Below are positions 49,220 to 55,203 of a stretch of 64,000 bases of DNA, in pieces. The translations under genes were made by a program, and so were the position numbers. The notes below the pieces were generated by a model. The model saw only the letters and a list, made by a program, of their open reading frames with translations, was not told where the DNA came from and did no database searches. Numbering within the stretch: the stretch's first letter is position 1; each line of letters opens with the position of its first letter. The stretch comes from Bacillota bacterium (lineage in GTDB: Bacteria > Bacillota > Desulfotomaculia > Desulfotomaculales > JBFMEU01): contig JBFMEU010000001.1 of the NCBI GenBank assembly GCA_040753155.1, forward strand, positions 13,273 through 77,272. Direction: 5' to 3'.

Positions 49220-51817
49220 CTACAACAAATCCTTCACCTGAAAGGCACAGCGGCAGGGGGGACTGTGGGAACAGACAGCCAGCGGCCCGCGCCTGGAGGT
49301 GATCGTTTTCAAAAGATGACCTGCCGGGCAGCTCAGCCCGGCTTCAGCCAGGTATTGTCCCAGGATTTCCGGCGTCAGATTTTGGGCCGGCTGCCGGCAG
49401 CGCGGGTAGGCCGTGCAGCCCAGGAAATATCCGTGGCCCGTTCCGGCACGGACTGTCAGCGGACTGCCGCAGCCGGAACAGGTGAGCATGTTCTCCACGT
49501 AAGCCCTCAGTCCGGAATAGCGCCCTCCCAGGAAACCTTTGCGCAAATCCAACTCCAATAGATACATCAGGGTGCGGCAGACCTTTTCTCCGCTTAACCG
49601 TACGCTCAAGCGGTCCACCCGGTGGTCGTCCGGCCAGGGGCAGCCGTACCAAACCGAGCTGGTGTCGATGGCCGTAAGCGGCGTCCTGACACCGGGGGAC
49701 TTGACCACATAGGGCTGTAATTCCCCGGGAAAGGCTGAAGGCCGGCCCGCCCGCAAAGAGAGGCGGGCTCCGCCGGCCAGGGCCCGCTGCAGGGCGGCTG
49801 TCACAGGCCGCCCCGGCGGTCCGGCGGAGGCGGGCCAGTCCATTTGCACCACGGCGGCCTCCCGGATATCTTCACACCACGCCTCCAGGACCGGCATGCG
49901 CTCGGTATGCCAGTCGAGGCTTAAGGCCGAACCCCGGAGATGATCAGGCAAAGCCGCCAGAAGTTCTTTGCCCCTGATCACCCTGCCGTTCTGTTCAATG
50001 AAGCGAAAGAGCCGCGGCACGATGGAGTCACCGGGCAGCCGGTCCTCCAAAAAGGCGCGGTGGGCCAACACCATAAGCTTGCCCCGCGCCCTGGTGACGG
50101 CAACGTTCACCAGCCGCTGCCCGGCCCCGCCTGCCCGGCGGGAAAGGATACCCCCCGGACCACGCTGGGGGAAAGCGTCCACCAGGTCCAGCACCACCGC
50201 GTCCTGTTCCGCACCCTGAAAGCGGTGGATGGTGGCGGCCACCAGGCCGGCTGCCTCGGATCGGGCGCCGGCCGCCCCCAGCAGCCCGGAAACCATGGCG
50301 TTCAACAGCCTGGCCTGGGCTGCGTAAGGCGCGAGCAGTCCTACCGAGAGGCCACTCAGCCTTACCTGCCAGGCCAGCGCCAGGGCCAGAAAAGCGGAAA
50401 AAGGGTTGAAGCGGGAATGAACATGCCGGTAGCACATGGCCGGCAAGTCGCTCAAGTCAACCAGCACCAGCGCCGACCCGGGGCAGGGGTCAACGGCGGC
50501 CAGTTCAGCGCGCCGGGCGGTCTCGGGGGCGTTGAAAAGCTGGCCGCCGTACACGGTGTCGTTGACAAAGCCGGCAATGGCCGGATGCATGCGGCGCTGG
50601 TAGCGCAATACAGCCAGATCCGGCATCTTGCCGGCCTCAAAGGAGGCAATGATTCCGGCTTCATCGAAGATGTCGCGCTTCAGCCAGCGATCCACTCCCT
50701 CCGTCCCGGCCAGGGCCACCGGGGCCAATTGGCGGAAATCACCGCTGACCACCAGGTTCCGGCGGGCCAGCGAGGCGGCAAAAAAGACTTGAGGAATATA
50801 GGCCATACTGGCTTCGTCCAGCAGTACGGTGTCGAAGTGGCCCTGGTAAATCAGAGGATCTGTCGCCGCCATGGCCAGAGTACAGCCAAGCACACCGGCC
50901 TCACGGGCCAGTTGCGCCTCCGCTTCTTTCAGCTTCGCCCGAACCTCACGCAGCGCCAGTTCCACCTCATCCATACCGCCGCCGGGGCGCCTGCCGGAGC
51001 GCAGTCCGGCCAACAGGGCGCTGCGCTCCGCTTCCAGTTTTCTCCGCCGGTCCCGCAGGTCGGGGCGCCGGGCGGCGGCCAAGTTGGCCGCCAGCAGCCC
51101 ACTCTGCCGCAGCGCCGGCAACCTGGCCCAGCCGTAGCGCAACACCAGGCCGGAGGGCGCAGACTCTCCAAATTGCGTTGCGGCCCGTAACACGGCGCCA
51201 TCCACGGCCACGTTGGCGTGCGAAAGGATCAAGACCCGCCGTCCCTGTCCGTGAAAGAGCCGCGCCAGGCGGGCCAGGGTCTCGGTCTTACCGGTGCCCG
51301 GCGGTCCCCAGATAAAAGTGATTTCCCTGCCGTCAGCCAGGCGCAAGGCCTCTTCCTGGGCACCGGCCGCCGCTGAGGGCGGGACATAAAGCCGCGGGCC
51401 GGCCGGCACGCTTCCCAGCACCGCCAGGGCCATCTTGAGGTTTCTCTGAGGTGCCTCGCTTAATCGTTCCTGCAGGGCGGTCAGTAAAAACCAGGGCTCG
51501 CCAAAGACCTCGGCTCGCTCGACATAATCACCTATATTTTTGCTTAGCGCCAAAGTAAGCTCGGCGCCACGGACTGTCACAACCTCGCCCCTGGATTCGC
51601 GGTGTCCCGAGCAAACCCGCACCGGTGTGCCGTCCAAAAGAAACGACTCTATCTCCAATTCAAAGACATACAAAAAACCTGATTCGCCGCGATGGATTAA
51701 CACCCCGTCCAAAGCCATCAGGGGGCGTCCGCCCTCGTGCGTCAAGTAAGCTATTTCGTCGGCCAGGGCCTCTTTAAAAGCTTCAATAATACTGGAAAAA
51801 TCCAATCCGGCAGGCAC
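49220..51817 (-). CDS. SF1B (Upf1/DNA2-like, AAA_11/AAA_12) helicase with a C-terminal Topo-IA-type zinc ribbon (gene D of the candidate system)
   Basis: 865-aa ORF with a GTG start. Motif I IWGPPGTGKT, II VLLDEASM, III SGDFRQLAPV, VI VAVTRARGKLMV. C-terminal CSGCGSPLTVRAGTGHGYFLGCTAYPRCRQ plus a second Cys-rich ribbon. Confidence 0.85.
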   Translation of the reverse strand: MPAGLDFSSIIEAFKEALADEIAYLTHEGGRPLMALDGVLIHRGESGFLYVFELEIESFLLDGTPVRVCSGHRESRGEVVTVRGAELTLALSKNIGDYVERAEVFGEPWFLLTALQERLSEAPQRNLKMALAVLGSVPAGPRLYVPPSAAAGAQEEALRLADGREITFIWGPPGTGKTETLARLARLFHGQGRRVLILSHANVAVDGAVLRAATQFGESAPSGLVLRYGWARLPALRQSGLLAANLAAARRPDLRDRRRKLEAERSALLAGLRSGRRPGGGMDEVELALREVRAKLKEAEAQLAREAGVLGCTLAMAATDPLIYQGHFDTVLLDEASMAYIPQVFFAASLARRNLVVSGDFRQLAPVALAGTEGVDRWLKRDIFDEAGIIASFEAGKMPDLAVLRYQRRMHPAIAGFVNDTVYGGQLFNAPETARRAELAAVDPCPGSALVLVDLSDLPAMCYRHVHSRFNPFSAFLALALAWQVRLSGLSVGLLAPYAAQARLLNAMVSGLLGAAGARSEAAGLVAATIHRFQGAEQDAVVLDLVDAFPQRGPGGILSRRAGGAGQRLVNVAVTRARGKLMVLAHRAFLEDRLPGDSIVPRLFRFIEQNGRVIRGKELLAALPDHLRGSALSLDWHTERMPVLEAWCEDIREAAVVQMDWPASAGPPGRPVTAALQRALAGGARLSLRAGRPSAFPGELQPYVVKSPGVRTPLTAIDTSSVWYGCPWPDDHRVDRLSVRLSGEKVCRTLMYLLELDLRKGFLGGRYSGLRAYVENMLTCSGCGSPLTVRAGTGHGYFLGCTAYPRCRQPAQNLTPEILGQYLAEAGLSCPAGHLLKTITSRRGPLAVCSHSPPCRCAFQVKDLL

Positions 51818-51870
51818 CTCTCAAGGGGATCAAGTAAAAAGCCCGGTCCGTTTTTTAAACATTGCTGGAG

Positions 51871-51962
<92 letters not shown>

Positions 51963-51965
51963 CAG

Positions 51966-53216
51966 TCAATATTCCTGTTCCCTTGCTTCAATCAATTCTT
52001 CACTGTCCGCAAGCTCACCAGGCAGGATTTCCTCCGGCATTACCACCGCAATCTCCGGCCTCTCGCCGTAAAGGTATTCCAGATCCAGGTACTCCACCAG
52101 GGCCCGGATCACCGTGCGCAGCGGCTTGTCCACGGGCAGACTGCCGTTGATCCGGTCAAAATCATCCGGCGCCGGCCAGTCGAAGGCCCGGGCATGGTGC
52201 TCCCGGATAGCCTGCAGCATCCGTCCGATGTCGAAGGTAGAGAGGGTGTCCAGAAAAAGGTTATCCTTTAAAAAGTGCCCAAAGACCTCTTTCACAGTGG
52301 GAATTTCATGCTGTCTCCCCTTGGCCTCCAGCTTCCGCGGCACATTGTCGTAATCACTGTTTTTCTGCTTCCAGATCAATTCCGACCACAGGTTGGACGA
52401 AGCGGAAAAGACAGTATAAGTGGCCGTAAGGCCGAAGGAGGGCGACATGAACCGGGCGGCGTTCAAGTAGGCGTTGGCCCTGGCGGTGACGCCCAGATAC
52501 ATAAGCTGCTCGAATTCGTCCAGCAGAAGAACCCAGCCGGCATAGCCGCCGGACTTAATCAGGCGGGAGAGAAAGCGGAAATAGTCAAAAACATTCTCCT
52601 TCACCTTAAAGGGCGGCATAGCCAGCGCCTTTCCGAAATTCAAGCGGTGAATGGATTTTAGCTGGGCGTTGGGCACAAAGTCACCGGCCAGATCGCTGGT
52701 CAGAATGTGCTGGTTGTATGCGTCACCGCTGCCGTCCAGATAATTTTTCAGCACAGCCTCAAGCCTGGGGTGAAGGTTGCGCCCGGCATAACGCAGGATC
52801 TCCTCCGCTTCCTCGCCGCCCGGTTTTAGCTTATCCAGCAAGGGCGTAAAGCCAGGCTGCGAGTAACCGGGCAGGTAGAGACTTGTTGCCGCCCGGCGGT
52901 AAAGGCGGTCCAGTTTGTCAAAGGGCGTTTCTTTGGATAGCGGCACAAAGCTCACGGCAAAGTTCATCTCCGCCGCCTGCCGGGCGATGATATTCAAAAA
53001 GTGGGTTTTGCCGTTGCCGAAGTTGCCTTTCAGCACCAGCGCGGAAACGCCGTCCTCCGTACGCACGCGGCCTAATTCACGTCCCACGCGTTCCAGGGCG
53101 GCTTCCCGCCCATAGGAAAAAATGGTGCTCAAATGCCGGGAAGAAACTCCGGAACGCAGGCACTCCATGACTTGCCTGGCCTCAAATCTATCCATCCCGC
53201 TCACCTCCCGCGGCAT
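51966..53216 (-). CDS. P-loop ATPase, BrxD/DUF2791-like (gene C of the candidate system)
   Basis: 416-aa ORF with ARQVMECLRSGVSSRHLSTIFSYGREAALERV, then Walker A LKGNFGNGKTHFL and Walker B WVLLLDEFEQL. The alternative start M8 (53195) gives an 8-nt overlap with gene B. Confidence 0.65.
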   Translation of the reverse strand: MPREVSGMDRFEARQVMECLRSGVSSRHLSTIFSYGREAALERVGRELGRVRTEDGVSALVLKGNFGNGKTHFLNIIARQAAEMNFAVSFVPLSKETPFDKLDRLYRRAATSLYLPGYSQPGFTPLLDKLKPGGEEAEEILRYAGRNLHPRLEAVLKNYLDGSGDAYNQHILTSDLAGDFVPNAQLKSIHRLNFGKALAMPPFKVKENVFDYFRFLSRLIKSGGYAGWVLLLDEFEQLMYLGVTARANAYLNAARFMSPSFGLTATYTVFSASSNLWSELIWKQKNSDYDNVPRKLEAKGRQHEIPTVKEVFGHFLKDNLFLDTLSTFDIGRMLQAIREHHARAFDWPAPDDFDRINGSLPVDKPLRTVIRALVEYLDLEYLYGERPEIAVVMPEEILPGELADSEELIEAREQEY

Positions 53217-54318
53217 GCTGATTGGCTATGGCCTCCACCACCCGCCGCAACGGCGAGATCATCCCGACGTTATCCACCAGGCAGCGAAAATCTTCCCGCT
53301 GAAGGCCGGAACCCATATCGAAGGCTTGGTTAAGCCTGTCTTGCAGATCCAGGCATAGTTCCGTTGTAAAAAATTCTTTCACCAAAGCGTCCTGGTTAAA
53401 AAGGTCGGCAAATTTATTTGGACGTGACCCGGAGACTTCGTTCTGAATGCGCATCCACAGGGCCTCATATGACTTGAAGCCTCCCTTTTCATCATAAAGC
53501 AGCTCATTCCGGCCGGCGAAGACAAAAAACGCCCCTTCAAAGCCGGCGAAGTCGTCTACCAGCTGCCGCAGGCTTTCGTAGACCTCGTTGCGGGCCGACT
53601 TGCCGTAAAGCGCCCGCCCTGTCGCCCCCCTCTCCAGGAGCGCGTCCAGGTTATCCATGGCCAGGCAAAGGCCCCGGCGGCCGCAGAGGCGCAGCAGACA
53701 AAGAAAAGAAGCCATCATGTGCCGGGCGTTATACTTGTCGATGCGGGTAAAGAGCTTCAAAGGCTTTAAAACCCTGGCCTGCAGCGGGCGGCCTTTAAGC
53801 CAGTCCGCCAGGATCTCCTTTTGCTCCGGGGCTAAACGGCGTGAACCGAGACGATGGGCGCAAAGCTGGGTGAAAGCCATGGCAAAGTTGTGGTCAATCT
53901 TCCTGTCGTGGTAAAGGGCGTCCAGGCTTTCCTGAATCTCGCGCCGGAGGGTGTCCGCCGCCCGCCCCTGCCCCTGGGCCCAGCTAAAGAAATCCTGCTC
54001 CGGTGGAATCTGCGGGGACCGGTAGCCCATGCCCTCCAGGACAATTCCACAGTAATCGTCCACCAGGGCTGCCATATCCACCTCTTCCAGCACACTCTGG
54101 TAGATGGAGTCAAACTTGTTCAAGCGCACCAGGCGGGCGTCTGCGAAAACTGTAAGATACCCCAACCGGCGGGCCTCTTCCAGCAGGAAGAGCAGCGCGT
54201 GGGTCTTGCCCGAGCCCGTCTTGCCGAGCAAAAATTTCACCTTGCTGCCGCCGGCGGCGATATAATCATCAAGGTAGTGCGTCCGCCAGAAATTCCAGAT
54301 GCCATCCTGCGCGCGCAT
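53188..54318 (-). CDS. P-loop ATPase, BrxD/DUF2791-like paralog (gene B). The N-terminus probably extends upstream of the first ATG
   Basis: 376-aa ORF. Walker A LLGKTGSGKTHAL and atypical Walker B LCLAMDNLDAL. The 30 in-frame codons upstream (54319-54408, PLDPVTREEALEHLRRGRPPQDKEALGAIT) align with the N-terminal motif of gene C but contain no ATG/GTG/TTG. Confidence 0.6.
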   Translation of the reverse strand: MRAQDGIWNFWRTHYLDDYIAAGGSKVKFLLGKTGSGKTHALLFLLEEARRLGYLTVFADARLVRLNKFDSIYQSVLEEVDMAALVDDYCGIVLEGMGYRSPQIPPEQDFFSWAQGQGRAADTLRREIQESLDALYHDRKIDHNFAMAFTQLCAHRLGSRRLAPEQKEILADWLKGRPLQARVLKPLKLFTRIDKYNARHMMASFLCLLRLCGRRGLCLAMDNLDALLERGATGRALYGKSARNEVYESLRQLVDDFAGFEGAFFVFAGRNELLYDEKGGFKSYEALWMRIQNEVSGSRPNKFADLFNQDALVKEFFTTELCLDLQDRLNQAFDMGSGLQREDFRCLVDNVGMISPLRRVVEAIANQHAAGGERDG

Positions 54319-54408
54319 TGTAATCGCACCCAGCGCCTCTTTGTCCTGCGGCGGCCGTCCCCGCCGCAGGTGTTCGAGGGCTTCTTCCCTTGTTACCGGG
54401 TCCAGAGG

Positions 54409-55203
54409 CTATCCCTCCCTGTAAAACTTCATTACGCCGAGGCGCTGGGGCTGTCCCTGGGCGTCCAAAACCACCAGGGCCTGTTTCCGGCTGCGCACAT
54501 TGCCCAGCCAGAGCCGCCGGCCGTCCGGCGCGTTCGGCTGGCCGCTCTTAAACACCCTGTGCAGGTCAAAGGCAAATAGCTGCAATGGATAATCCCGCCT
54601 TTGCTGCGGCATGGGTGTAAGGGTATTATAAACGTCTTTAATCAGCACTTCCTGTTCGTTTAAGTCGATTTTGGTTTTCGCGATCTGCCTGGCCATCTCC
54701 GTATCGTAAGCCGCCGCCAGGGCCTGGAGAAAGCGCTGGGCGTCGAAGGAAGCCGCGTTTAAGCGGTCAATGCTCTTCTTCAAGTGTCTGGCCAAAACCC
54801 CCGGGCGCAGGTTGCGGTAGACCTTATCGTCAATGGTTACCATTTCTTTGTCCGGCAGCACCCGCACCTTAAAAGGCAGCACCTCGTAGACCGGGTACTC
54901 GGCCTCCACAGCCAGACCCTCATCAGCCAAGGCCGCCAGGAACACCTGGTGAAAATCCTCCAAAAGGTACGACTGCAGGCTGAAAGACGGCACTTTTTCT
55001 TTAAAGTCCTGCAGGTTCGCTTTTTGCCTCTCCACCAGTTCCTCATAACGGACCAGTCCCTGCTGGAGGGCCTCCAGGTTTCCCCCAACGGCTGCTTCAT
55101 TGATCCGCCTCACCACGTTCAACATGCTGCGATGGACGTTGTTCAGGCTCTTAAAGTCCTCCTGCAGCGATTGATCCAGAAATTTATCCAGGTTTATAGA
55201 CAT
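54409..55203 (-). CDS. hypothetical helical protein (gene A of the candidate system)
   Basis: 264-aa ORF. Heptad-like helical N-terminus (LNNVHRSMLNVVRRINEAAVGGNLEALQQGLVRYEELVERQKANLQDFKEKV). No motif I recognise. Its TAG stop is in frame with gene B. Confidence 0.6.
   Translation of the reverse strand: MSINLDKFLDQSLQEDFKSLNNVHRSMLNVVRRINEAAVGGNLEALQQGLVRYEELVERQKANLQDFKEKVPSFSLQSYLLEDFHQVFLAALADEGLAVEAEYPVYEVLPFKVRVLPDKEMVTIDDKVYRNLRPGVLARHLKKSIDRLNAASFDAQRFLQALAAAYDTEMARQIAKTKIDLNEQEVLIKDVYNTLTPMPQQRRDYPLQLFAFDLHRVFKSGQPNAPDGRRLWLGNVRSRKQALVVLDAQGQPQRLGVMKFYREG

Follow-up and report, generated by a model that had tools for sequence, protein, structure and literature searches.

The DNA analyzed here, called the window throughout, is a stretch of 64,000 nucleotides (nt) from a Bacillota bacterium (GenBank assembly GCA_040753155.1, contig JBFMEU010000001.1, positions 13,273 to 77,272). 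Its minus strand carries a module of four genes, A to D, and our subject is the start of the second of these, gene B, which is separated from gene A by a single in-frame TAG and whose first canonical start codon lies some distance further on. The features of this junction, with coordinates counted on the window, are as follows.

55203 to 54409, minus strand: gene A, an open reading frame (ORF) of 264 amino acids (aa) from a family without assignment, at the head of the module.
54420 to 54414, minus strand: AGGGAGG, the Shine-Dalgarno (SD) sequence for B, within the last codons of A; its GGAGG core (54418 to 54414) ends 8 nt before the CTG.
54411 to 54409, minus strand: TAG, the stop codon of gene A and a real stop; TAG, TAA, or TGA in orthologs.
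54405 to 54403, minus strand: CTG, the proposed start of B, 3 nt past the stop of A; GTG or TTG in orthologs.
54402 to 54319, minus strand: codons 2 to 29 of B (DPVTREEALEHLRRGRPPQDKEALGAIT), a conserved N-terminal segment that is absent from public gene calls and corresponds to BrxD profile positions 3 to 40.
54318 to 54316, minus strand: ATG, codon 30 of B, where public annotation begins the protein (376-aa product); no canonical start precedes it in B.
54405 to 53188, minus strand: gene B as revised here, encoding a 405-aa DUF2791/BrxD-like P-loop ATPase (PF10923).

A previous inspection of the letters and reading frames, to which we refer as the sequence-only reading, had drawn attention to the TAG and to the absence of a canonical start between it and the ATG, and had offered three explanations: initiation of B at a noncanonical codon, an A-B fusion made by readthrough or recoding of the TAG, or a 671-codon gene split by a nonsense mutation or a sequencing error. 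Its description of the DNA was accurate. The 30 codons that follow the TAG (54408 to 54319) are open, share the frame of the ATG at 54318, and read PLDPVTREEALEHLRRGRPPQDKEALGAIT. No ATG, GTG, or TTG occurs among them or among codons 1 to 29 of B, and the only near-cognate codons in the segment are CTG (codons 1, 13, and 25 of B, counted from 54405) and ATT (codon 28).

Gene B is a member of Pfam family PF10923, which it matched with 93 bits (cut-off 22.2), and it aligned with the PADLOC BrxD model from model position 8 (77.7 bits). When read from the CTG, the protein aligned with the NCBIfam BREX_BrxD profile from position 3 with 75.5 bits, whereas the protein read from the ATG aligned only from position 41 with 71.1 bits. 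The match from position 3 shows the segment to be homologous to the N terminus of the BrxD/DUF2791 family. An AlphaFold2 (AF2) model of B has helices at residues 3 to 14 and 22 to 27, with predicted local distance difference test (pLDDT) scores of 83 to 86; its fold matches were weak and of AAA+ type (HslU, RdrA, and ORC/Cdc6; expectation value, E, ∼5e-3; template modeling score, TM, ∼0.3). The sequence-only reading had also likened the N terminus of B to that of gene C, its paralog in the module. This likeness held at the level of the profile, with C aligned to the BrxD profile from position 4, but not in direct BLASTP comparison, in which the two proteins were 22% identical and the first 50 residues were unaligned. 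The Walker A motif occupies residues 61 to 68 of B, counted from the CTG, and was aligned with residues 64 to 71 of C; as had been pointed out, the ATG start would place this motif nearer to the N terminus, by ∼30 residues.

When B was extended back to the TAG and used as a query, the search returned orthologs of 402 to 418 aa that covered 96 to 100% of the query, mostly 100%; the revised 405-aa protein is covered in full by orthologs of 403 to 414 aa. Nearly all of the ∼55 ortholog cluster representatives begin with M/V-[DE]-P-A-V-R-E-E-A-L-E-x-L-R-x-G-x-P-P, and these N termini coincide exactly with the L-D-P-V-T-R-E-E-A-L-E-H-L-R-R-G-R-P-P of the window. The start codon of the orthologs, GTG, TTG, or ATG, falls precisely where the window has its CTG, in agreement with the first of the three explanations, and orthologs that lack the upstream motif and start at the equivalent of the window's ATG were not found. 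On the basis of such sequence comparisons, we consider it probable that B is a separate gene of 405 residues that is translated from the near-cognate CTG at 54405 to 54403, where this codon replaced an ancestral GTG.

The A-B junction was compared across 24 loci from species-representative genomes, together with metagenome contigs. At the 21 junctions outside the CTG clade described below, the DNA reads AGGGAGGGA, then TAG or TAA, CCN, and GTG or TTG, in identical register when single substitutions are allowed; the consensus is TTTTAC AGG GAG GGA TAG CCN, followed mostly by GTG and by TTG in five loci. The SD sequence before B is kept in nearly all ortholog junctions (one substitution allowed), and the terminal codons of A, Y-R-E-G-stop, double as the ribosome-binding site of B, the R-E-G codons being invariant. 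The spacing between the stop of A and the start of B is +3 nt in the window; of the 29 other junctions of one extraction, 28 have the same spacing and L011 has +4 nt. A second junction set gave +2 nt in L030 and +3 nt in L028. The stop codon of A is TAA in L015 to L018, L021, and L028 and TGA in L030.

These junctions bear directly on the second explanation, according to which translation continues past the TAG, through readthrough or recoding with pyrrolysine (Pyl) or a suppressor, to give a 671-residue A-B fusion in which the conserved segment serves as a linker. The TAG, the one-codon spacer, and B do lie in one frame, both in the window and in the majority of orthologs, and readthrough would account equally well for the coding constraint on the segment presented below. 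The frame is broken, however, in L011 (+4 nt, or +1 nt to an upstream TTG), L030 (+2 nt), and L047 (A frameshifted and overlapping B), and out-of-frame junctions of this kind were what the sequence-only reading had itself named as speaking against a fusion. Moreover, A ends with TAA or TGA at some loci, and the canonical start with an SD sequence at the same codon in orthologs marks B as an independent cistron. No A-B fusion was found in 5.8 billion proteins, all matches being of B length and spanning at most 60% of the 671-aa query. In the genome, which is 91.6% complete, PylS and PylD were absent (best scores of 24.8 bits for the PylS model TIGR02367, cut-off 178, and 18.7 bits for TIGR03911, cut-off 150), and none of the 42 tRNAs has a CUA anticodon. 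We regard the production of such a fusion as highly improbable, and we conclude that the TAG and B match in frame simply as a consequence of the conserved +3-nt junction.

Several further observations concern these loci and the tRNA set. At L047 (GCA_001507835.1, Desulfotomaculum sp. 46_80; 1440-1550) and at L046, a 1-nt insertion lies ahead of the C-terminal codons of A (TTTTACTTAGGAGGGATAG compared with TTTTACAGGGAGGGATAG). The insertion in L047 shifts the frame of A, giving a protein of 291 aa and an overlap of ∼75 nt with B; the GTG start of B is intact, and the gene caller chose an internal ATG at residue 10. The protein P0034, a 404-aa ortholog called from residue 10, was considered as a second case lacking a canonical start and was rejected, the DNA having a canonical GTG; its call is short because A is frameshifted and overlaps B. 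At L015, L016, and L018, the B proteins (P0028, P0032, and P0033) are 500 to 511 aa long, with ∼100 extra low-complexity residues (Glu, Ala, Gly, and Pro) located between the conserved GTG start and the ALExLRRG motif. The window's genome encodes one tRNA-Sec (anticodon TCA), making TGA-selenocysteine recoding likely, and the ARAGORN calls of tRNA-His(ATG) and of three tRNA-Arg(TCT) look unusual.

Members of the CTG clade were collected by cluster look-ups, using contigs from the 90% cluster of B and from the cluster of A. The arrangement TAG CCT CTG was found in five distinct sequences from nine Logan runs of four accession series: the window's own variant (also present in L036 to L038), L001, L031, L032, and L033 to L035, with one of the five sequences being partial. 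A search of JGI metagenome contigs with the exact pattern AGGGAGGGATAGCCNCTGRAC gave no match. The five sequences form one clade (support 100/99), and CTG is present at this codon in that clade only. Synonymous divergence between the window and other members is ∼0.13, and the flanking genes differ among members. As judged from these sequences, the distribution fits a single GTG-to-CTG (G-to-C) replacement on the clade's stem branch, retained as the clade diversified, with GTG as the ancestral start.

The remaining explanation of the sequence-only reading, broadened here to an error of sequencing or assembly at either the TAG or the start codon, or to a gene that became nonfunctional once its start was lost, would be in keeping with a genome that is a draft of 121 contigs. 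The junction nevertheless recurs unchanged in three more assemblies of the window's variant and in four other variants from independent runs; because the same TAG and CTG occur in independent assemblies of nine runs, an assembly or sequencing error does not explain them. The TAG is ancestral and conserved, and the ratio of nonsynonymous to synonymous substitution rates (dN/dS) of 0.27 over the rest of B indicates purifying selection on the gene. With A and B separate in every ortholog and TAG CCT CTG recovered from nine independent runs, the notion of a split 671-codon gene was abandoned, and we give an artifact or a pseudogene almost no credence.

The runs that contain L033 to L038 (SRR22746111-135) hold both the window type and the L033 type of the module within one accession series; the latter type has other upstream neighbors and, at codon 30, GTA. 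The presence of two module variants in one run series indicates that two related strains or species co-occur.

The clade also provides information on whether codons 2 to 29 are still translated. Eight positions in this segment are conserved in the family (L10, L13, G16, P18, P19, D21, L25, and T29). Among the five clade sequences the amino acid varies at 13 of the 28 positions, none of which is a conserved one (hypergeometric p=0.002), and three codons exhibit synonymous change only, two of them at conserved residues, L10 (CTC/CTA) and T29 (ACA/ACC). Neither stops nor frameshifts were present in codons 2 to 29 of these five diverged sequences. Because the variable sites avoid all eight conserved positions, the segment is under coding constraint and appears to be still translated.

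This result must be set against a further alternative, that the present start of B is the ATG at 54318, its product a truncated 376-aa ATPase, and the 29 upstream codons a relic recently orphaned by the mutation of GTG to CTG, or, in a variant of the same idea, that two isoforms are made from both starts. Every public annotation chose this ATG, CTG is a poor start codon (10.1101/063800), the segment's dN/dS reaches or exceeds ∼1 within the clade, and the ATG codons found near this position in the window and in L001 are perhaps compensatory gains. The retention of 8 of 8 family-conserved residues, two of them with synonymous-only change, and the unbroken frame are at odds with a relic, and truncation to the ATG would cost 38 family profile positions. 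Nor is the ATG conserved: within the clade only the window has it at codon 30, where L001, L031, and L032 have GTG and L033 to L035 have GTA; the L033 to L035 variant contains no in-frame ATG, GTG, or TTG before codon 56, beside Walker A. Using a generic Firmicute anti-SD sequence, as for all energies reported here, the predicted SD duplex was -13.4 kcal/mol before the CTG and -13.0 kcal/mol for the SD sequence of A itself, whereas the ATG at 54318 lacks a proper SD sequence and has only an interrupted, badly placed match (-8.9 kcal/mol). The rapid evolution of the N terminus is found in orthologs with canonical starts as well; in pairs of these, N-terminal dN/dS was 0.1 to 0.7, mostly below the values of the clade, and dN was 1 to 4 times that of the rest of B. 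We therefore think it unlikely that B has moved its start to the ATG, which is probably an internal Met codon (Val in orthologs), although the window's own variant may use it (M30) to a minor extent as a second start.

Some results nonetheless weigh against initiation at the CTG. This codon is an inefficient start in the species that have been tested, and a downstream ATG that could act as a second start is present both in the window (codon 30) and in L001 (codon 28). The clade's pairwise dN/dS for the ∼29 N-terminal codons was 0.5 to 4, compared with 0.27 for the rest of B, values that come from small counts; constraint on the N-terminal codons may have been relaxed to some extent, to judge from these substitutions. 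The anti-SD sequence is a generic one, the 3' end of the 16S rRNA having not been found in the assembly. Finally, the whole genome was examined for GGAGG followed after 5 to 9 nt by a CTG that opens an ORF of at least 150 codons, relative to a control spacing, and in this crude test CTG was not enriched after GGAGG (ratio of 1.0, compared with 2.9 for ATG). The proposed CTG start of B is thus a single case and not an organism-wide habit. In favor of the CTG stand the homologous position of the start, the retention of the codon throughout the clade, the constraint on the segment, the SD sequence, and the absence of fusion and of recoding.

If B is translated from the CTG, the initiator fMet-tRNA would initiate there, supported by the strong SD sequence located 8 nt upstream within the last codons of A. 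From the +3-nt geometry we infer translational coupling, in which ribosomes finishing A would restart on B; the same stop-start spacing is present in the classic coupled pairs galT/galK and rplK/rplA (PMC12548453). Initiation at CUG in Escherichia coli reporters is ∼1 to 2% of that at AUG, with a range of 0.02 to 3% (bioRxiv 10.1101/063800), and natural AUA and AUU starts with extended SD sequences in Staphylococcus aureus reach ∼10% (PMC13009471). Coupling would make a weak CTG tolerable, and the output of B would then be tied to that of A, at a reduced level. No hairpin that might sequester the SD sequence was suggested by folding of the region, whose predicted fold did not exceed that of shuffled sequence in stability (z=+1.6); the same result gave no support to an RNA-unfolding model of coupling.

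A stronger version of this proposal is that the CTG has been kept by selection as an attenuator, so that nearly all synthesis of B would fall to ribosomes fresh from termination on A, yielding a low ratio of B to A and of B to C. We offer this version tentatively and consider it rather doubtful. If it were true, the clade would represent a natural experiment in the tuning of a hetero-oligomeric ATPase by its start codon. More generally, a GTG-to-CTG change that appears to have persisted at a conserved coupled junction would support relaxed start-codon identity at tightly coupled junctions.

The most direct consequence concerns annotation. The 376-aa call for B is present in NCBI, JGI, and ENA, and the public calls in the 90% cluster of B (NCBI, JGI, ENA, and Logan) are 376 to 379 aa long, all of them N-terminally short by 26 to 29 conserved residues because gene callers ignore CTG. 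The public records of B thus omit its conserved N terminus and call for correction, and the in-frame TAG requires no recoding.

Gene A is 264 aa long in 25 of the 29 loci where it could be read, and the mean column identity of 18 aligned sequences is 85%. It had no match in Pfam, PADLOC, or NCBIfam. An N-terminal coiled-coil hairpin was predicted; the AF2 model is poor (pLDDT of 67.7) and gave no significant fold match (best E=0.8). The module continues downstream of B with two more genes.

53216 to 51966, minus strand: gene C, the paralog of B, encoding a second, divergent DUF2791/BrxD-like ATPase with a Pfam match.
51817 to 49220, minus strand: gene D, the last gene of the module, encoding an Upf1/IGHMBP2-like superfamily 1B (SF1B) helicase with C-terminal Topo-I-type zinc ribbons.

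For gene C, the ATG at 53195 is probably the true start, rather than that at 53216. The former is preceded by the SD sequence GGGAGGTGA (-16.4 kcal/mol) and yields a protein of 409 aa with an 8-nt overlap with the end of B, as in the orthologs at L001, L031, and L032; the longest-ORF call (416 aa) is likely seven codons too long. The product of D matched Pfam AAA_11, AAA_12, and Zn_ribbon_Top1, was MkoA-like according to PADLOC, and belonged to the IGHMBP2 family of NCBIfam; D occupies the same position in L001, L032, and L047. The gap between C and D (51965-51817) is 148 nt, compared with 85 nt in L001, and the SD sequence before the GTG of D at 51817 is poor (-4.9 kcal/mol). D may start elsewhere than at this GTG, or it may be translated in another way.

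The order A-B-C, with D wherever the contig or the called genes reach, recurs with unrelated flanks in L001, L032, and L047, and the neighbors of the module differ at every locus compared (window, 49220-55203; L001, L002, L032, L033, and L047). In the window the adjacent genes encode an HD-GYP protein, a major facilitator superfamily transporter, and a helicase; in L002, C is followed by an acetyltransferase gene and no helicase. The module was present in 7 of the 41 genomes of the same order that were searched, the window's genome included. Its recurrence with unrelated flanks identifies it as a self-contained accessory module, and these data suggest a mobile one, possibly with a role in defense.

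The junction and its genes can be compared with several known systems. Some Desulfotomaculum- and Desulfitobacterium-type Bacillota encode Pyl, and the in-frame TAG between two coding stretches resembles Pyl recoding in such bacteria. The window's genome differs in having no pylS, pylD, or tRNA-Pyl, and its TAG is an ordinary stop, in whose place some orthologs have TAA or TGA. With BrxD of BREX and SngB of Shango, B and C share the family PF10923 and matches to the PADLOC models of both BrxD and SngB, and a helicase gene is a neighbor, as it is for SngB in Shango. B and C nevertheless score far below the cut-off of 350 bits for the BrxD equivalog NF033438, with 75.5 bits for B. The locus also differs from BREX and Shango in that no BREX genes are adjacent to it, the partners are an Upf1-like SF1B helicase and the 264-aa protein A, and two paralogous ATPases are present.

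Near-cognate starts (CUG, AUU, AUA, and AUC; NCBI table 11) occur naturally in infC and pcnB of E. coli, with AUU, and in infC, ccpN, and cvfC1 of S. aureus, with AUA or AUU (PMC13009471). The case of B is like these in having such a codon at the homologous start, a strong and well-spaced SD sequence, conservation among strains, and a start missed by gene callers. It is unlike starts of the infC type in being a young, clade-specific change, apparently of GTG to CTG, in an accessory module rather than a matter of ancient housekeeping regulation, and no feedback role is implied. The coupled pairs galT/galK and rplK/rplA (PMC12548453, PMC6728339, and PMC10666635) differ in starting at AUG or GUG rather than CTG, and coupling at the A-B junction is proposed from its geometry. 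The junction has in common with these pairs the +3-nt spacing, an SD sequence inside the upstream gene, and a conserved arrangement, and, like the products of such pairs, those of A and B plausibly are subunits of one complex. Since CTG starts and coupled junctions are both already known, the case opens no new mechanism; what it adds is a datable change, to all appearances from GTG to CTG, that has been retained in one clade, together with the correction of all public calls.

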